This document shows, piece after piece, positions 897-54,608 of a stretch of DNA of 64,000 nucleotides. The stretch is from the sequence record OM386655.1. One strand, 5' to 3'. How positions within the stretch are numbered: position 1 is the first letter of the stretch; every line of letters begins with the position of its first letter. The DNA comes from Escherichia phage vB_EcoM_ESCO10. Under the pieces are notes generated by a model. The model was given only the letters and a program-made list of their open reading frames with translations, was not told the DNA's origin and made no database searches. The translations under genes were made by a program, and so were the position numbers.

Positions 897-1715
897 ATGG
901 CTATTACATTAAGTCCATCTTCAATAGACGTAGAATACGGTGACTCTTATACAGTCACTGCTAATATTCCAGATATTAGCCCTGGTTCATCTATTGTGTA
1001 TAACTGGACTAAGAATAAAAAATTTATTAGTTCCGGAACTAATGTATTCACTGAAATAGCATCATCGGTAGAAACATTAAGTATTGCGTGCCGAATTGAA
1101 ATTATATCACCGGATAAAAACACTGAATATATTTTATCGGATTCTTGCTTGGTTAATGTTAGTAAAAACACAAAAGCGGACGGTATAAATTCTCAGCTAG
1201 TTTATTCACCAGATGTTCATAAAATAGGTGACCAAGTTATTCTTTCTGTAGAATCCCGCCATGTAGACCCTGGCTATATTAAAGGAGTTATTTGGAAAGA
1301 TCCATCGGGTAATGTCGTGTCAATTGGTAAAGAATATACGCATAAGATTAAGACGACAGAAGATGTTGTAGATGTAAAAATAGATTTGGCTTCTGAAAAT
1401 TATGCATATTACAATAAAACACTTCAAATTGTTCTTAAAGCTATTGAAGAAGATAATTCGGAGTGTAGTGTAAGATATATTCATCCTTTAGACCACAGGG
1501 ATTCAGGATACATCTGGATGGGTTGGTGGGTTATGGACGAAATTGAAAGGGCAACGGTAGAAGGATTAAATTGGAAAGCGCCGGACGGTACTGACCTGAA
1601 GTATAAGTGCGACTTGAAAACTCTTTCTATAATGCTTGACTTATATAATAATGTTGAAGTACAAGAATCAAGGAATGGTTATATTCTAAACAGGGCAGAT
1701 TTACTTCCAAAATAA
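897..1715 (+). CDS. Hoc-like capsid decoration paralog (Ig-like region plus Hoc-type C-terminal capsid-binding domain)
   Basis: C-terminus YIHPLDHRDSGYIWMGWWVMDEI...VQESRNGYIL parallels C-terminus of hoc product at 1742-2845. Confidence 0.6.
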   Translation: MAITLSPSSIDVEYGDSYTVTANIPDISPGSSIVYNWTKNKKFISSGTNVFTEIASSVETLSIACRIEIISPDKNTEYILSDSCLVNVSKNTKADGINSQLVYSPDVHKIGDQVILSVESRHVDPGYIKGVIWKDPSGNVVSIGKEYTHKIKTTEDVVDVKIDLASENYAYYNKTLQIVLKAIEEDNSECSVRYIHPLDHRDSGYIWMGWWVMDEIERATVEGLNWKAPDGTDLKYKCDLKTLSIMLDLYNNVEVQESRNGYILNRADLLPK

Positions 1716-1741: not shown

Positions 1742-2845
1742 TTAATAGACGTAATCGTATATAATACCAGCTTCCAATGCCGAACGGTGGACGATACGAC
1801 CGTTACGAGATTCCTGTACATCAACTTCCGGGTAATCACTAAGCATTTTGGCTAATACAGCCAGATGACAATAATACGGTGTATCCTCTTTAGTGGCTTT
1901 TTTCCAATCTGTACTTTCAGATGTTAATTTCTGAATAGCGTCCATAACCCACCAACCACACCAAATATACGCAGTATTACGGACAGGAAGTGGATGTACA
2001 TAAATTAAAGGACATTCTTCTGGAACAACAGGCTCTGCTTCTGCCACCGTAACAGACTTATTACCTGATTTAACTGAATTTGTAAAGCCTGATTGTGATG
2101 CAGTAACTTCACAAGTATATGACTTCAAGCCTTCAGTGGATTCCGTTATTGCTCTTGTTGCTTCTGTTGAGTTGTCGTCCCATTTATATGCAAGAGTAGC
2201 ACCAGGGATAGCAGGGGACACGGAAGCTGTCAAATTGAATGGAACATCAACCGTTGCAGTAGACGGGCCTGAAATCTCAACAGTGAACTCAGGAAATGTA
2301 TTGTTTTCGACCGTAACAACTACTGCATCAGGATTAATAACTTGGTTGTCATAATCTGCAGCAGAAATGGTAATTTGACAAGTTAAAGAAACCGGTCCTG
2401 CAACAGTAGCGGTGCGAGTAATATCTTTGGTAGTTTCACCGGTAGACCACAAATATGCTATTGAAGCTCCACCAGGTTCACCTGTTACATTAGCCGAAGC
2501 TTTATATTCCTGTCCAACTTTAACGGTAGGAGTGGAAGTTGTTAATGTTGCGGTTGCAGACATAGTCTTATTATTAACTGTGATGGTTGTTTGAGCCTCT
2601 GCCGTTTCAGGCTCTCCTTCTTCCGGCGTTGTGGTGGCAACAACTTTAATTACTTTTGAACCTGCTGGCCCAGCTGCAATATAATCCATAGTAGCAATAA
2701 CAGAATCTTGTGGAACCTCATCAACGGTCCATACAAAAGATTCGGTACCAGCGACAGCGGCTCCAGCTCCAGTGGCAGTAAAATTAGTTGTTGCACCTAT
2801 AACCGCTGTAGGTGTTAAAGGGGCAATTGATACAGTATAAGCCAT
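1742..2845 (-). CDS. hoc: highly immunogenic outer capsid protein Hoc
   Basis: tandem Ig-like domains; C-terminal YVHPLPVRNTAYIWCGWWVMD...VQESRNG matches T4 Hoc; ATG 2845 preferred over track TTG 2857. Confidence 0.8.
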   Translation of the reverse strand: MAYTVSIAPLTPTAVIGATTNFTATGAGAAVAGTESFVWTVDEVPQDSVIATMDYIAAGPAGSKVIKVVATTTPEEGEPETAEAQTTITVNNKTMSATATLTTSTPTVKVGQEYKASANVTGEPGGASIAYLWSTGETTKDITRTATVAGPVSLTCQITISAADYDNQVINPDAVVVTVENNTFPEFTVEISGPSTATVDVPFNLTASVSPAIPGATLAYKWDDNSTEATRAITESTEGLKSYTCEVTASQSGFTNSVKSGNKSVTVAEAEPVVPEECPLIYVHPLPVRNTAYIWCGWWVMDAIQKLTSESTDWKKATKEDTPYYCHLAVLAKMLSDYPEVDVQESRNGRIVHRSALEAGIIYDYVY

Positions 2846-6025: not shown

Positions 6026-6028
6026 AAC

Positions 6029-6057
6029 AAAAAAAGGCCCAACCTTTCGGAAGGGCC
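6029..6057 (-). terminator. intrinsic terminator ending leftward uvsY operon
   Basis: GGCCC...GGGCC hairpin followed on minus strand by T7. Confidence 0.5.
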
Positions 6058-6088
6058 AATAACCATAAAAATGGCTATACACACTAGA

Positions 6089-14108: not shown

Positions 14109-14110
14109 TA

Positions 14111-14136
14111 AAAAAGGAGAGCCTTGGCTCTCCTTT
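14111..14136. terminator. bidirectional intrinsic terminator after gene 54
   Basis: GGAGAGC-CTTG-GCTCTCC hairpin, A5 upstream, TTT downstream. Confidence 0.6.
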
Positions 14137-14141
14137 AGGGG

Positions 14142-24326: not shown

Positions 24327-24650
24327 TCACTTATAAAGACACGGAATAGCTTTATAATGACAAGTAACGAATTTCTGTTTAATTTCTTTAGGCTGTTTAA
24401 TACCTAATGCAACTAACGGATGAGGCACGTTAGCAATCTTACCGACAGGAAGTGGGGTCAAATCACCTACTTCACAAAAATCTTCAGGGACATCAGGTCC
24501 TACAGAATAAACTTCACAGAGTTCAGGGATTTCACCTTGATGAAGTTTGCCAATAACGATACCTGATGCAGTAGTTTCTTCATCACCAGCTTGTTTTGGT
24601 TCGGAAACGAGAATAATATATTCTCCGACCGCTTTAATAGGAAGTTCCAT
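24327..24650 (-). CDS. 31: co-chaperonin gp31 (GroES-like)
   Basis: close match to T4 gp31 (...[23 protein letters not shown]). Confidence 0.9.
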
Positions 24651-48272: not shown

Positions 48273-51200
48273 ATGGCTACTTTAAAAGCGATACAATTTA
48301 AAAGAAGTAAGACAGCTGGTGCCAAGCCTACTGTAGACCAGTTGGTTGAAGGTGAACTGGCTATTAACTTACGCGACCGTACGATTTATACAAAAACCGA
48401 CCAGAATCAGATTATTGACCTTGGCTTTGCTAAAGGTGGACAGGTTGATGGTGATATTCTCCAGAACGGCACATTTAACCTCAATGGTAATATGTTCGTT
48501 TACGCTGGTAAGTATATTGAATTCCTGCCTAAAACTGCGGGTAATGGCGCCTGGGCAAACCAACATTTAACTAAAGCTCCTATCTTTGCAGATTTAAGTT
48601 CAACTGCCTCAGTATCAGAATATCATCCTCTGATTAAGCAACGTTATAAAGACGGTACTTTTTCTGCTGGTACATTAGTAAGCGAAGGCTCATTTAGAGT
48701 TCATTATATTGATTCTACAGCTCCAGACAATTCTAAACACTGGGTCTTTAATCGAAATGGTAATTTCATCGTAGATTCTGGTAGTATTGAAGTTCGTACC
48801 GGTAATATTTCTGCTTCAGGCAATATTAACTCTGCTAATGGTATTATCACTGGTCCTGAAATTGTTACTAAAAATATTAATTTCAGTACAAAACCATTTA
48901 TAGCTAATGCCAACATTGGATATGATTGGGTTTCTTTACCTACTTGGGTTTATAACCCACCGGCTGATGGTTCTGATAATACTACTAACGGTTTAAACTA
49001 TTTGCGTAAATTGCGTGCATCAAGTGCATCAAGTATTTTCCATGAAATTGCTGATTGTCGAAAAGGCAAGCCACAAGAAATTTCCTGGTGGACCGGTGTA
49101 GGTCCGGCATCTTTCCAATGGGCGTTTGATACCTCTGGGCGTATTACCGCAGGTAAATCTATTTCAGTAGGTCTTCCTGATAACGGGGCAAATGGGCGTT
49201 ATCCTTTAGATTCAGCTATTTCTATTGGTATTGCCATCGGTGATAACGATACAGGTATTAAATGGGTCCGTGACGGTGTTTACGACCTGATGGCCAATGG
49301 TATTTCATCTGCTACTATTTTGAATAACGGTATTAATAGTACTAAAAAATTGATGGTTGGTTATAGCCGAGATTCAGGTTCTACTTGGGATTTCCCGAAT
49401 AATAACCAAGCAATGTTTACTGCGCGTACTGATGTTGATGGCAATAATAACGGCGATGGTCAGACTCATATCGGTTATAGCAGCAATGCTAAAATGTATC
49501 ACTATTTCCGTGGCGCGGGTCGTATGTCCGTTAGTATGGCCGAAGGGCTTATTGTTGAACCAGGAATTTTAGATATTAAAACCGGTTCCAATAGCGTTGC
49601 TATTAGAGCGGACGGAACAATTAACTCCACCCAGCGTATTTCTATGCGTACGGGCTTGTTTTTAAATGGTGATGATAATACTAATGCTTTATCGTTTAAA
49701 GCGCCTTCTGGTGTTGATGGTACTAAAACTATCAATTGGGACGCGGGTATTCGTAACGGTCAAAACAAAAACACTGTAACACTTAAAGCTTGGGGTAATT
49801 CATTTAATGCAGGCGGCGGTAACAGAGAAACTGTATTTGAAGTATCGGATTCACAAGGTTATTATTTTTATGCCCAGCGTACCAATCCGGCCGTTGCCGG
49901 AGGTATAGGACCTGTCAACTTTAAGTTTAACGGAACTATTGAAACAGGTCATATCATAGGCCTTGGTGATATTACTGCTTCCGGTACAGGTTCTTTTGGT
50001 GGCAATGTTACCATGACTAATGGCCTGTTTGTCCAAGGTGGTTCTTCTATTACCGGCCAAGTTAAAATCGGTGGAACAGCTGATGCATTAAGAATTTGGA
50101 ATGCTGAATATGGCGCTATTTTCCGTCGTTCCGAAGATAAGCTTTATATTATTCCAACTCCGCAGAATGCTGGAGAATCAGGTGGTATTTCTAATTTACG
50201 TCCGTTCTACATTACATTAAGTACTGGTCAAGTTTCTATGGACCATGTAGTAGATATCGGCGGTGGTAGATTTAAAGTAGATACAACTGGTACTACGGCT
50301 GGCCAACGTATTACAGTTAATGCAGCAAGCGATGCTGTTGTATTAAATGCCCCTAATCAAGAATCATCCAACTTTATCCAGGGTCGTAAAGCCAATGTTA
50401 CTAAATGGTATCTTGGTATTGGCGATGGTGGTAACGTTGTTCGTATGCACAACTATACATATGCGCACGGTATTGCGTTGAATGCTGATACTGTTGATAT
50501 AACCAAGGCGCTTAAAATTGGTTCCGATATTCGTATTGGTCTTGATGGCAATATTACAGGCAGCACTGCATTAGAAAACTTTAAAAACCTGAACACCACT
50601 TTAAACCGTAAAGTTAATGTCGGAACTTGGTCGGGTGGTGCGGCTGCGGGTTGGTATAAATTTGCTACTGTAACTATGCCTCAAAGTGTGGCTACTGCCC
50701 AATTTAAAATTACTGGCGGTAACGGATATAATGTCAATTCATCGGAACAAGCCACAATTACTGAAATAGTTCTTAGAACTGGTAATAACAACCCTAAGGG
50801 TATTAATGCCACCTTATGGGCGCGCACAGGTAATGGATTTACTAATATAGCAACAATTAATACCTCCGGCGATGACTATGATGTTTACCTATACGTTGGA
50901 ACTTACGCGGACAAACTTATAGTCGAATATGATTATACAGCAAACACCCGTTATATTTCGGTAGTCGGTCTTAATGATGTGAATCAAACCCCAGTCGCGG
51001 AATTACCTACTGGTCACCAGCGCGGACAAGTGTATATGATGTATTCTGATGCTCAGATACCTTATCCGGTGGGTGCTCCGATTCCATGGCCGAGCGATTC
51101 AGTTCCAGCCGGATTTGCTTTAATGGAAGGTCAAACCTTTGATACCGGAGCTTATCCTAAACTAGCTGCAGCTTATCCGTCGGGTACTATTCCGGATATG

Positions 51201-51821
51201 CGTGGACAGACTATTAAAGGTAAACCAAGTGGTCGTGCAGTGTTGAGTGCAGAAGCTGATGGTATTAAGTCTCACAACCATGGCGGCTCTGTTGCGAGTA
51301 CTGATTTAGGTACTAAAAACACCTCATCATTTGATTATGGTACTAAAAACACCTCATCATTTGATTATGGTACTAAAACCAGCAACACAACAGGTAACCA
51401 TAACCATAGCGTTAGTGGCAATACTGGCGCAGCAGGTAATCATCAGCACTCACAGACAGGTCCAAGAGGTCCTAATAATCAACCAACAGGAATATTTCCT
51501 AATGGAGCTACTCAAATTAGTGGAACCCAGGTTGTTTCTTTTGGCATAAGCAACGGTGTTGTGCCTGGTGTAAACCAATATATTGCAAAGTCATCGACAG
51601 AAGGTAACCATACACACTCTTGGTCTGGAACTACAAATACCACCGGTAACCATGCCCACACCGTTGGTATCGGTGCTCATAGTCATTCGGTCGGTATTGG
51701 TGCTCATAGTCATTCGGTTGCAATCGGGTCCCACGGTCATGGTCTTACCATAAATAGTACAGGTAATACAGAAAACACGGTTAAAAACATTGCTTTTAAC
51801 TATATCGTTCGCTTAGCATAA
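48273..51821 (+). CDS. 37: long tail fiber distal subunit gp37 (receptor-binding tip with His-box repeats)
   Basis: 1182 aa; C-terminal G-N-H-x-H-S repeats; followed by gene 38. Confidence 0.9.
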   Translation: MATLKAIQFKRSKTAGAKPTVDQLVEGELAINLRDRTIYTKTDQNQIIDLGFAKGGQVDGDILQNGTFNLNGNMFVYAGKYIEFLPKTAGNGAWANQHLTKAPIFADLSSTASVSEYHPLIKQRYKDGTFSAGTLVSEGSFRVHYIDSTAPDNSKHWVFNRNGNFIVDSGSIEVRTGNISASGNINSANGIITGPEIVTKNINFSTKPFIANANIGYDWVSLPTWVYNPPADGSDNTTNGLNYLRKLRASSASSIFHEIADCRKGKPQEISWWTGVGPASFQWAFDTSGRITAGKSISVGLPDNGANGRYPLDSAISIGIAIGDNDTGIKWVRDGVYDLMANGISSATILNNGINSTKKLMVGYSRDSGSTWDFPNNNQAMFTARTDVDGNNNGDGQTHIGYSSNAKMYHYFRGAGRMSVSMAEGLIVEPGILDIKTGSNSVAIRADGTINSTQRISMRTGLFLNGDDNTNALSFKAPSGVDGTKTINWDAGIRNGQNKNTVTLKAWGNSFNAGGGNRETVFEVSDSQGYYFYAQRTNPAVAGGIGPVNFKFNGTIETGHIIGLGDITASGTGSFGGNVTMTNGLFVQGGSSITGQVKIGGTADALRIWNAEYGAIFRRSEDKLYIIPTPQNAGESGGISNLRPFYITLSTGQVSMDHVVDIGGGRFKVDTTGTTAGQRITVNAASDAVVLNAPNQESSNFIQGRKANVTKWYLGIGDGGNVVRMHNYTYAHGIALNADTVDITKALKIGSDIRIGLDGNITGSTALENFKNLNTTLNRKVNVGTWSGGAAAGWYKFATVTMPQSVATAQFKITGGNGYNVNSSEQATITEIVLRTGNNNPKGINATLWARTGNGFTNIATINTSGDDYDVYLYVGTYADKLIVEYDYTANTRYISVVGLNDVNQTPVAELPTGHQRGQVYMMYSDAQIPYPVGAPIPWPSDSVPAGFALMEGQTFDTGAYPKLAAAYPSGTIPDMRGQTIKGKPSGRAVLSAEADGIKSHNHGGSVASTDLGTKNTSSFDYGTKNTSSFDYGTKTSNTTGNHNHSVSGNTGAAGNHQHSQTGPRGPNNQPTGIFPNGATQISGTQVVSFGISNGVVPGVNQYIAKSSTEGNHTHSWSGTTNTTGNHAHTVGIGAHSHSVGIGAHSHSVAIGSHGHGLTINSTGNTENTVKNIAFNYIVRLA
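51309..51368 (+). repeat. perfect 30-bp tandem duplication inside gene 37
   Basis: ggtactaaaaacacctcatcatttgattat x2 encoding GTKNTSSFDY twice. Confidence 0.9.
51663..51716 (+). repeat. 27-bp near-perfect tandem repeat in gene 37 His-box region
   Basis: two units encoding VGIGAHSHS with two synonymous differences. Confidence 0.8.
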
Positions 51822-51826
51822 GGAGA

Positions 51827-51840
51827 GGGGCTTCGGCCCC
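51827..51840 (+). promoter_or_regulatory. RNA hairpin GGGGC-UUCG-GCCCC between SD and gene 38 start codon (split ribosome-binding site)
   Basis: AAGGAG at 51820-51825, hairpin, AUG at 51849 (23-nt spacing, ~9 nt when folded). Confidence 0.55.
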
Positions 51841-51848
51841 TTCTAAAT

Positions 51849-52391
51849 ATGAAAATCTATCATTTTTATTTCGATACAAAAGAATTTTACAAAGAAGAAA
51901 ATTACAAACCGGTTAAAGGTCTTGGTCTTCCTGCTCATTCAACAATTAAAAAACCTTTAGAACCTAAAGAAGGATACGCAGTTGTATTTGATGAACGTAC
52001 CCAAGACTGGATTTATGAAGAAGACCATCGAGGCAAACGTGCATGGACTTTTAATAAAGAAGAAATTTTTATAAGTGACATTGGAAGTCCGGTTGGTATA
52101 ACTTTTGATGAGCCGGGCGAATTTGATATATGGACAGATGATGGCTGGAAAGAAGATGAAACATATAAACGAGTAATGATTCGCAATCAAAAAATCGAGG
52201 GGTTTTATAAAGAATTCCAGGTATTAAGTAATATGGTTGAAGCCTCAGTCGCCGATAAGAAAGAAAAATTCTATCACCAGAATCTTAAACGTTTCTTTGC
52301 TCTTTTAGAAAAACATGAACACTTGGGTGGTGAATTCCCGGCTTGGCCAGAAAAAGATAAAAAGCCTTGGTATAAGTGCTTTTTCAAATAA
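51849..52391 (+). CDS. 38: gp38 long-tail-fiber assembly chaperone (T4 type)
   Basis: matches T4 gp38 as remembered (MKIYH.YFDTKEFYKEENYKPVKGLGLPAHS...). Confidence 0.85.
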   Translation: MKIYHFYFDTKEFYKEENYKPVKGLGLPAHSTIKKPLEPKEGYAVVFDERTQDWIYEEDHRGKRAWTFNKEEIFISDIGSPVGITFDEPGEFDIWTDDGWKEDETYKRVMIRNQKIEGFYKEFQVLSNMVEASVADKKEKFYHQNLKRFFALLEKHEHLGGEFPAWPEKDKKPWYKCFFK

Positions 52392-52402
52392 TACTTCTAT
52401 AT

Positions 52403-52410
52403 TATAAATA
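52403..52410 (+). promoter_or_regulatory. late promoter TATAAATA for holin t
   Basis: exact match 18 nt upstream of t ATG. Confidence 0.6.
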
Positions 52411-52428
52411 TCTTTAAAGGAGAAAAGT

Positions 52429-53082
52429 ATGGAACCAAAAGTAGGATTTTCATTAACAGACCTACTTTTTGGACTTCTTGATAGAATTTTTAAAGATACT
52501 ACTTCCGGGAAAGTAGTTTTTTCCCGGGTCCTAGTCGTAATATTATTGTTCTTTATGACATTGATTTGGTATAAAGGCGAGTATATTCTAAACTTTTACA
52601 AAGAGACAACTTATGCCTCTTATACTGAAATGATTAGACAAGACCAGGACAATAGATTTAAAATTGCGGCTATCGAGCAGCTCCGAATAGTGCATTCTTC
52701 TTCAGGCGCAGACTTCACAGCAATATATTCTTTTAGGCCGACCAACATGAATTATTTTGTGGATATGGTAGCTTATGAGGGTAAATTACCAGAAACGGTA
52801 GACGCAAAAAATACGGGAGGGTTTCCGATTGACAAAACGTCAGTAGAGTATATGGCGGGAGTTAACGGGAACTATTTTGAATCATCTACTGAATCAGTGT
52901 TTCTCCCTACAAAAGAGAAAACTTATTTCACTTATATGTTTTCGTGCCCGTTTTTTAATTTGGATAACATCTATGCCGGTTCGATATCATTATACTGGTA
53001 TGACATCAAACCGGATTTAGGATTTCCTAGACTTTCGTCTATGTGTGGTCAGGCCGGGAGGACATTAGGTCGAACTCGTTAA
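52429..53082 (+). CDS. t: holin T
   Basis: matches T4 holin T (N-terminal TM, large periplasmic domain); 217 aa. Confidence 0.9.
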   Translation: MEPKVGFSLTDLLFGLLDRIFKDTTSGKVVFSRVLVVILLFFMTLIWYKGEYILNFYKETTYASYTEMIRQDQDNRFKIAAIEQLRIVHSSSGADFTAIYSFRPTNMNYFVDMVAYEGKLPETVDAKNTGGFPIDKTSVEYMAGVNGNYFESSTESVFLPTKEKTYFTYMFSCPFFNLDNIYAGSISLYWYDIKPDLGFPRLSSMCGQAGRTLGRTR

Positions 53083-53354
53083 AAATTGGAGGTATACATC
53101 ATTAGATAACGGTGTATATCTTCATACCCTTCATTAAATTGCTCAATAAGAGTATCACGTTCATCTTCAGTTAAAGACTTAAAGAGTTTATTAAAAGATA
53201 GACCATTAAGTTCCTTTCCTTGTTCATTACGAATACCTAGCTCGTTCAAAAAGGCAATAAACTCATCACGACGTTGCATGATGTCTTCACAATCCGTTTT
53301 AATTAAAATAGAAACAATAGTAGCAATTTCAGAAACGATTTCAATTTTAGTCAT
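53079..53354 (-). CDS. asiA: AsiA anti-sigma-70 factor
   Basis: matches T4 AsiA (...DEFIAFLNELGI...LIEQFNEGYEDIHRYLMMYT). Confidence 0.9.
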   Translation of the reverse strand: MTKIEIVSEIATIVSILIKTDCEDIMQRRDEFIAFLNELGIRNEQGKELNGLSFNKLFKSLTEDERDTLIEQFNEGYEDIHRYLMMYTSNF

Positions 53355-53403
53355 TTTAATTTACTCAAGTATTCAATAGGACGTTCATTTATTCAGTAAG
53401 AAT

Positions 53404-53432
53404 ATTGTAACACTATTCTTCTAGGTTGTACA
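53404..53432 (-). promoter_or_regulatory. possible sigma70-like early promoter for asiA
   Basis: minus TGTACA, 17 nt, TACAAT. Confidence 0.3.
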
Positions 53433-53664
53433 CATGATTTTTCATCCGTACAACATATTCCTGATATATCTCTTCTACTGGTTCCTGGAACTTAAAATCA
53501 GCTCCCAGGAATTCCTCAAAGCACTCCTGCTCACGTGTACGTTGACCTGATACAGTGTTCTCTAAGTTATGACTCATAGCCTTTACCCTTATGTTTCTGT
53601 TTACGAGTTGACTCTTTAAAGTTTTTCTTCTTGTCCTTATGGACAGAAGCCTTATTGAAATCAT
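53413..53664 (-). CDS. hypothetical protein (83 aa or shorter)
   Basis: ORF track. Confidence 0.4.
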   Translation of the reverse strand: MISIRLLSIRTRRKTLKSQLVNRNIRVKAMSHNLENTVSGQRTREQECFEEFLGADFKFQEPVEEIYQEYVVRMKNHVYNLEE

Positions 53665-53678
53665 GCTTAGCTACTAGA

Positions 53679-53876
53679 TTATTCATAATGTGCAATTACC
53701 TCTCTTAAACATCCACCTGTAAGACTGAAACGCTTGGCTACCCCACACTCAATGATATGTTCTGAAAGCATATTCACATCAGTATAACCCAGCTCGACGA
53801 TGAAGTATTTTATAGTTTCCTTATCACGAGAATTTAAACTACTGAAATACTCTGATTTTGAATTAAGAGTCTTCAT
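53679..53876 (-). CDS. hypothetical protein (65 aa)
   Basis: ORF track. Confidence 0.4.
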   Translation of the reverse strand: MKTLNSKSEYFSSLNSRDKETIKYFIVELGYTDVNMLSEHIIECGVAKRFSLTGGCLREVIAHYE

Positions 53877-54138
53877 GTAATTTCCTTAATTGATATTCTA
53901 AAGAGCTAATAATTTCTTTATTAGTTGCGATATACATATCACGTAGGAATGGCTTAAGGCCTTCCATATTCCCATGAATGGTCTTAGAACTAATATTCTT
54001 TATATATTCATGGTCTAAAGCGTCCCATGCCGGTTGGTTGACATAAGTACCCCAGTTATCTTCCATCATAGCATTCAGACGCTTGATATGATTAATGTGG
54101 GCTTCAATAGCATCAATCTGGATTTGTTTAAGGTTCAT
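53863..54138 (-). CDS. hypothetical protein (91 aa)
   Basis: ORF track; arn-region position. Confidence 0.45.
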   Translation of the reverse strand: MNLKQIQIDAIEAHINHIKRLNAMMEDNWGTYVNQPAWDALDHEYIKNISSKTIHGNMEGLKPFLRDMYIATNKEIISSLEYQLRKLHEDS

Positions 54139-54608
54139 TAGTAAAGGTCCTCTGAATAAAGTTCGTCTTCGCGCCCGCCACGTTCAATACGTACCTGGCC
54201 TGCATAAGTAGCAATAATCATGGCTTCTTTACGGGTCCAATAATTGCTGTATTGGTCGATAAATCCTTGGTCATCACCACATACCTGACATGAAACAACT
54301 CTGTCTTCAACTGCATCTAATACAGCAGCCATGTCTTTAGAATAATGACGAGCACCCGGAATAATGAGTGTTCCACCTTCCTTTAATTTAAAACGGTTCG
54401 CTGCTGAAACAATACGTCGTTGGAATTTCTGGTCATTACACCAGTACCCAAGTTCCCAACAGATTTCAGGAACTTCATCCAGGACATCTTGTTCTGTATA
54501 TTCACCACCATAAGAAGCTAATTTAGCAGCCAGACTTTCAGGAGTCTCGCGTGACAGAGCTTTATCTAACAGAGCCAAACGTTCTTCAAATGTTTTCATT
54601 TGAACCAT
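54138..54608 (-). CDS. hypothetical protein (156 aa)
   Basis: ORF track. Confidence 0.5.

Follow-up and report, generated by a model that had tools for sequence, protein, structure and literature searches.

Background

The closest described counterparts of the locus analysed here are the t/asiA junctions of phage T4 and of the Dhakavirus genomes VR5, JS10 and IME08, which resemble it in their two genes, in the convergence of these genes and in their role as boundary between late and early transcription. The original location of asiA by Orsini et al. in 1993 was reportedly "at the end of the lysis gene t". T4 differs from the present locus by stop codons that abut instead of interlocking. Its early and middle transcripts all run counter-clockwise and its late ones in either polarity, both strands being transcribed at several sites (PMC2988020), and sense and antisense transcription of T4 gene 32 is cited in PMC3014915. 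The T4 RNA-seq paper is silent on antisense and strand-specific analysis, and our literature search found neither a transcript map of the t/asiA junction nor a discussion of the overlap between the two genes.

Bidirectional terminators, known from E. coli and present at three other junctions of the DNA under study, answer the same need, i.e. ending converging units within tens of nucleotides. The stopping place of convergent polymerases is defined by a stem-loop of the nascent RNA (bioRxiv 10.1101/2022.10.23.513370). The t/asiA junction departs from these terminators by the absence of a spacer, of A-tract and U-tract flanks and of strand symmetry, and by a hairpin that is placed within a coding sequence and is stable on a single strand. 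Tail-to-tail overlaps (TTAA, TTAG, CTAA or CTAG) of compact prokaryotic and phage genomes display the same 4-nt geometry, and the sole distinction of t/asiA is that its partners belong to different temporal classes. Such overlaps being commonplace in compact genomes, the one between t and asiA is of little weight by itself. An example is found in Paraglaciecola Antarctic GD virus 1 (Paraglaciecola phage GD1), a distant AsiA-encoding phage where a 4-nt tail-to-tail overlap (positions 2356-2359 of locus L024) ends the early block; the overlap partners are unrelated there (gp135/gp136).

Results and discussion

Identity and geometry of the converging genes

The window, i.e. the whole stretch of 64,000 nucleotides that was analysed, carries gene t at 52429-53082 on the plus strand and gene asiA at 53079-53354 on the minus strand. 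The 217-residue product of t is a T4-type holin that matched Pfam Phage_holin_T (PF11031) over residues 7-216 (E=5.9e-65, 219.4 bits for a cut-off of 22.2); its counterparts in relatives are called t or holin, and its alignment with the holin of T4 and five others displayed 55 invariant columns. The 91-residue product of asiA, an anti-sigma-70 protein and co-activator of middle transcription, matched Pfam AsiA (PF09010; E=2e-22, 79.6 bits for a cut-off of 25). It also has the usual size of this family (about 90 residues) and its early neighbours, as MotA-like and Arn-like genes precede it in the same orientation. Judging by these protein matches, the identities of both genes are firm. Gene t is the last of a late tail-fibre/lysis block (34-35-36-37-38-t) and asiA the last of an early motA-arn-asiA block. 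An exact match to the T4 late-promoter consensus, TATAAATA, occurs on the plus strand at 52403-52410, 19 nt upstream of the t start codon. This motif is weak by itself, with nine matches in the window for 7.3 expected, and its position directly upstream, as expected for a late gene, points to a putative late promoter of t.

Among the tail-fibre genes that precede t, gp38 (51849-52391) is a T4-type tail-fibre assembly chaperone of 180 residues (PHROG 105) and gp37 (48273-51821) displays T4-like His-rich C-terminal repeats. VR5, the closest genome, has an unrelated gp38 adhesin of the RB51/T2 type, and the DNA match to VR5 starts no earlier than query base 99. These differences suggest that a genome otherwise like VR5 has had its tail-fibre module swapped.

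The stop codons of t and asiA are both held in the tetranucleotide TTAA at 53079-53082. That of t is the TAA at 53080-53082 and that of asiA the TAA read as reverse complement of 53079-53081; with one TAA per strand and a one-base offset, the two codons have two bases in common and the coding sequences overlap by 4 nt. The final t codon, CGT (Arg), also takes its third base from 53079 (T), and 53082 (A) also pairs with the third base of the final asiA codon, TTT (Phe). The overlap described in an earlier sequence-only reading of this DNA was found exactly as claimed in the sequence of the window and its open reading frames.

Convergent junctions of the window

That reading had also stated that no intergenic terminator separates t from asiA, and rightly so: this is the only convergent boundary of the window without one. 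A crude gene map revealed three other real convergent junctions, with spacers of 26-63 nt and canonical bidirectional terminators (A-tract, GC-stem and U-tract between genuine genes). They were found between two Hoc-like genes (1715/1742; terminator 1716-1741, AAAAAGGGCC-GCAA-GGCCCTTT), between a uvsW.1-like gene and a small ORF (6025/6089; terminator 6026-6088, GGCCC...GGGCC), and between a tail-tube-family gene and a small ORF (14108/14142; terminator 14109-14141, AAAAAAGGAGAGCC-TT-GGCTCTCCTTT). These three terminators act as in-genome positive controls for what terminators look like in this phage. The t/asiA junction, with its strand-asymmetric hairpin and no spacer, does not have this organization. 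An apparent convergent overlap at 24327-24349 turned out to be an ORF-calling artefact, i.e. a spurious ORF antisense to a real gene.

The convergent genes at 897-1715 (plus strand) and 1742-2845 (minus strand), separated by a 26-nt spacer, both matched Hoc-like head-decoration families. T4 has a single hoc gene.

In the absence of both intergenic space and terminator, any t transcript must enter asiA in antisense orientation. The sequence-only reading had proposed that late t transcripts read antisense into asiA. Entry is indeed unavoidable and must extend over at least about 45 nt. Free read-through does not follow: a conserved plus-strand hairpin 4 nt past the t stop, and a hairpin-plus-U-tract embedded opposite the asiA tail in T4 and at least six other lineages, indicate that read-through of t is probably limited. 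The lack of an intergenic terminator does not imply the lack of a 3'-end signal.

The junction among T4-like phages

The window belongs to Dhakavirus, its t-asiA region being 98.8% identical to that of Escherichia phage vB_EcoM-VR5 and 91-97% identical to those of other Dhakavirus genomes. The overlap is already present in the public annotation of close relatives, the VR5 RefSeq record (t, 161128..161781; asiA, complement 161778..162053) displaying the identical 4 nt. All examined relatives with an AsiA 77-99% identical to that of the window kept it. The sole junction change in this clade was TTAA<->TTAG, by which t keeps a stop codon (TAA/TAG) and asiA changes synonymously (TTT/TTC). Since the geometry was kept in all relatives examined, it is no chance coincidence of one genome. 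T4 has t up to 160877 and asiA from 160878 on (...AAATAATTATTT...), with abutting stops (TAATTA) and zero spacer.

The survey was extended to 70-odd loci from IMG/VR and GenBank, reduced to 21 non-redundant lineages where asiA directly faces t. Loci L007/L063 and L017/L079, whose spacers were aberrant (duplicated or frameshifted holin region, or contig end), were excluded or treated apart. The spacer was zero or negative in 16 of the 21 lineages (0 nt in eight, -4 nt in seven, and -8 nt in one, Acinetobacter phage 133); it measured +8 nt in two others and +12, +17 and +26 nt in one lineage each. Spacers of +12 to +26 nt contained GC hairpins, e.g. GGGAGAC-TTCG-GTCTCCC in L034 and GGGCC-GCAA-GGCCC in L037. 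In some genera asiA and t are separated by other small early genes, again with a junction that is tight or has a short spacer (+2 nt in Proteus phiP4-3, +43 nt in Aeromonas 31.2 and +33 nt in PspYZU05).

The t-asiA region of L007/L063 (IMGVR_UViG_2974741249 = MK295203, phage vB_EcoM_005) is scrambled and partly duplicated: fragments of the holin gene are repeated, and AsiA occurs at two places of the record. This looks like an assembly artefact and was kept out of the statistics.

Spacer length is free to vary between lineages (-8 to +26 nt), and T4-like genomes are extremely compact. Both features would suit plain genome compaction, according to which the overlap would be a neutral by-product of spacer loss, the hairpin past the t stop would be functionless and both transcripts would run on inside the opposite gene until stopped by Rho or nucleases. 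We regard this account as possible but unlikely, in view of the RNA structures described below.

A strand-specific hairpin past the t stop codon

The plus-strand RNA past the t stop can form a hairpin with a 14-bp stem, in which 53087-53100 pairs with 53111-53124 around a 10-nt loop. It begins 4 nt beyond the stop codon, inside the final 14 codons of asiA, and is antisense to asiA codons 78-90. Segment 53040-53125 reached -22.7 kcal/mol (z -2.68) when folded as plus strand and -9.6 kcal/mol (z -0.09, no better than shuffles) as minus strand, an asymmetry explained by three plus-strand G.U pairs that become C.A mismatches on the minus strand. A synonymous null was built by keeping the AsiA protein and redrawing the codons from the phage's own usage (3000 samples). 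The plus-strand hairpin, at -16.1 kcal/mol, was well beyond this null (-7.2 +/- 2.5 kcal/mol) and was reached in 0.3% of the samples (P=0.003), a result which tells against plain compaction; the minus-strand version stood at the null median (P=0.52). Minority synonymous codons (ATA 17%, CAC 28%, ACC 22% and TCC 10%) make up the stem, which is not what a functionless hairpin would lead one to expect either.

The hairpin was further compared in 12 relatives, where 99.4% of the pair cells were standard pairs; sliding the partner by 1-3 columns lowered pairing to 27-62%. Covariation consisted of just two compensatory events among these 12 related sequences, i.e. double changes from U-A to C-G at two pairs, each in a different clade, next to a single G.U to A-U change. 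Third-codon positions in the 10-nt loop varied freely, and the preservation of the stem by two compensatory changes beside such a variable loop again speaks against compaction.

The compensatory changes are strand-symmetric, and the equivalent short Tyr-codon hairpin of T4 folds better on the minus strand. One might thus suppose that 53087-53124 acts on the other strand or as DNA, for instance by stabilising the 3' end of the asiA mRNA, by binding a protein or by forming a cruciform. This appears improbable, as the three conserved plus-strand G.U pairs are mismatches on the minus strand, whose fold did no better than the null, and as most of the element would be hidden under a ribosome that is finishing asiA. 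At the asiA stop, the weak minus-strand hairpin of 53124-53087 (-6.5 kcal/mol), which has U5 after it, likewise had to be rejected for being no better than the null; its U-tract is not conserved, TTTTT being replaced by TTTCT or GATTC in relatives.

As regards intrinsic termination, the plus-strand hairpin displays the stable stem-loop and lacks the U-rich tract, its tail being AUACCCUUCAUU, a feature compatible with the compaction account. Terminator scans of 51500-54500 yielded no passing plus-strand site. Without U-tract and failing the scan, the hairpin is not predicted to terminate transcription by the standard rule and, lacking strand symmetry as well, it was not filed as a terminator. 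Rfam 15 gave no match at gathering score in the whole window and none at E<=1 in 52300-53800.

Embedded hairpins in T4 and other lineages

T4 displayed a 14-pair hairpin, AAAACCCUCGUUGA-AUUCG-UCGAUGAGGGUUUU followed by CUUAUCUUCU, on the strand of the t transcript, within asiA codons ~64-77 (KTLIDEFNEGF). Two independent scans agreed on this site (L001, 1921-1953; genome ~160,920-160,952), which looks like a canonical terminator with tail CTTATCTTCT and an upstream A-tract. Neither NC_000866 nor AF158101 annotates it, or any other regulatory feature at the t/asiA junction. Compared with the window, where the 14-bp hairpin without U-tract lies 5-42 nt past the t stop, the hairpin-plus-U-tract of T4 lies 43-75 nt into the antisense of asiA. 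A related CGTTGAATTC...hairpin was found at the position equivalent to that of T4 in L036, L047 and L064. In all, T4 and at least six other lineages displayed a canonical hairpin-plus-U-tract in the antisense of the asiA tail, the U-tract being found in T4, L022, L036, L047, L064 and L068. The hairpins of different lineages are not homologous and their positions differ, which would be in keeping with compaction.

Terminator-like sites were counted by the same rule within 160 nt of each stop in the 21 lineages. Past the t stop (plus strand), canonical sites occurred in 8 of 21 lineages for 2.1 expected under the synonymous null, 1.0 of this expectation stemming from the fixed spacer hairpin of L034; past the asiA stop (minus strand), they occurred in 1 of 21 for 1.1 expected. 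This enrichment on the plus strand only is difficult to reconcile with compaction, and so is the excess of plus-strand structure across lineages, specifically the spacer-less ones. By folding energy, without recourse to a terminator rule, nearly all lineages had more structure in the 100 nt past the t stop than expected under the synonymous null (mean z -1.77 over 21 lineages; t-test p=5e-6, such p-values being optimistic as the lineages are phylogenetically related). With protein identities of 45-60%, the lineages are largely saturated at synonymous sites, and the contrast between lineages with and without spacer provides an internal control for this test: mean z was -2.2 in the 16 lineages with a spacer of zero or less vs -0.4 in the five with a spacer. 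Control regions gave mean z values of -0.22 (sense 3' end of t), +0.72 (antisense of the asiA 5' end), and -0.63 and +0.16 (antisense of two internal t segments), the middle anti-t segment (-0.63) thus deviating slightly by itself.

From these comparisons, it seems that the late t transcript retained its 3' hairpin upon spacer loss, in the antisense of the C-terminal codons of asiA. The last 17 residues of AsiA are dispensable for toxicity and sigma-70 binding (PMC2988021).

Probable transcription from asiA into t

The opposite direction, from asiA into t, was missed by the sequence-only reading and should matter at least as much. A sigma-70-like promoter with an extended -10 TG, TGTACA-17-TACAAT, was found on the minus strand at 53404-53432, 50 nt upstream of the asiA start. 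It matches the consensus at 9 of 12 positions plus the TG, and its T4 equivalent is TTTACA-17-TATTAT plus TG. This candidate early promoter (53432-53404) is probably where asiA transcripts begin. No canonical terminator was detected on the minus strand downstream of the asiA stop, either in the window or in any spacer-less lineage scanned. For lack of a recognisable intrinsic terminator, early asiA transcripts most likely continue antisense into t. A weak minus-strand site of the terminator scan (53283-53264, seven pairs) was discounted, since it lies in translated asiA sequence far from the 3' end.

A 15-bp hairpin with two G.U pairs on the minus strand is located 68-106 nt downstream of the asiA stop (52976-53014), antisense to t codons ~183-195 and with no U-tract after it. 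In the window, its region displayed a z of -2.3 (P=0.02). L008-L010 carry a perfect 12-bp inverted repeat at the equivalent place, one register off, and in relatives the register is shifted or the pairing different or absent; strict covariation was not demonstrable. Lineage-wide, the RNA past the asiA stop was barely more structured (mean z -0.98) than the controls (+0.72 to -0.63). The read-through RNAs of both strands are untranslated and have a C/G ratio above 1 in most 80-nt windows. This agrees with the compaction account and is only mildly favourable for Rho, which would be the obvious candidate to end read-through on both strands.

With no intrinsic terminator visible on the minus strand after asiA, an early antisense-t RNA is plausible; T4 is moreover documented, in general, to transcribe both strands at different times (PMC2988020), and a spacer of zero or less was kept in 16 of the 21 lineages. 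Mutual cis-antisense control could be proposed on these grounds. The overlap would have been selected for the pairing of asiA and t read-through RNAs, early anti-t RNA guarding against premature holin and late anti-asiA RNA helping to shut early functions. We give this proposal little credence. Lineages with spacer terminators (L034, L044 and L037) do without the overlap, and so do Aeromonas 31.2, Proteus phiP4-3 and PspYZU05, with their genes between asiA and t. The plus-strand embedded terminators and hairpins argue for limiting read-through, not for promoting it.

Another conceivable but doubtful arrangement is a selected, interdigitated 3'-end module, in which the 3' hairpin of each unit would lie inside the coding sequence of the other gene. 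If true, translation would mask the hairpins in the sense direction and leave them active in antisense. The two RNAs would then have complementary tails of ~150 nt that link holin expression to that of AsiA, the early anti-t tail guarding against premature lysis and the late anti-asiA tail helping to retire the early programme.

A conserved hairpin was also observed inside the holin gene (52498-52535, t codons ~24-36; T4 equivalent, L001 1294-1332). It pairs T/S-G-K/R codons with S-R-V codons (CCGGGAAA...UUUCCCGG) and, in the 21 lineages, its mean z relative to the synonymous null was -1.9 in sense and -2.1 in antisense, 14 of 21 being below -2. Its codons covary (Arg CGG with ..CCG, CGT with ACG, AGA with TCT), the Lys-to-Arg change AAA-to-AGA being accompanied by TTT-to-TTC. 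AUCUUU(A/G)AA follows on the minus strand, and the element had no Rfam match. As a minus-strand structure, it could be a stop for early asiA read-through; on the plus strand, it could control holin translation or mRNA stability.

Conclusions

The explanation that we favour, with moderate confidence and from sequence comparison, is that t/asiA is a boundary of converging units that lost its spacer and whose hairpin is a 3'-end element of the t mRNA. A clockwise late unit (34-38, t) and a counter-clockwise early unit (motA...arn...asiA) would meet at this point, and the spacer would have been squeezed out in the lineage of the window, leaving the two stops interlocked in TTAA. The hairpin at 53087-53124 would be the 3'-end element of the late t mRNA. 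It could make the polymerase pause or terminate weakly, block 3' exonucleases, or do both, and would occupy the stretch of asiA that is least needed by the protein. Early in infection, ribosomes on asiA would keep the weaker sense-strand version melted; late in infection, the untranslated t read-through RNA would be free to fold the hairpin. The t mRNA would necessarily carry at least ~45 nt complementary to the asiA 3' end. Early asiA transcripts, for their part, would run antisense into t and be ended by Rho and/or downstream hairpins. The different timing of the two units may be what makes such an arrangement tolerable, and would avoid polymerase collisions.

The novelty is modest: the embedded strand-specific hairpin is the only new detail, of which we found no description, and it is a small variation on known themes. 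In T4-like phages that lost the spacer at this boundary, the holin message seemingly kept its 3' hairpin by having it written into C-terminal codons that asiA can do without. Since the timing of lysis is set by holin dosage, the 3' end of the t mRNA is a plausible tuning point. As for phage engineering, recoding or tagging the asiA C-terminus, or placing payloads after t, may alter the stability of the t mRNA.
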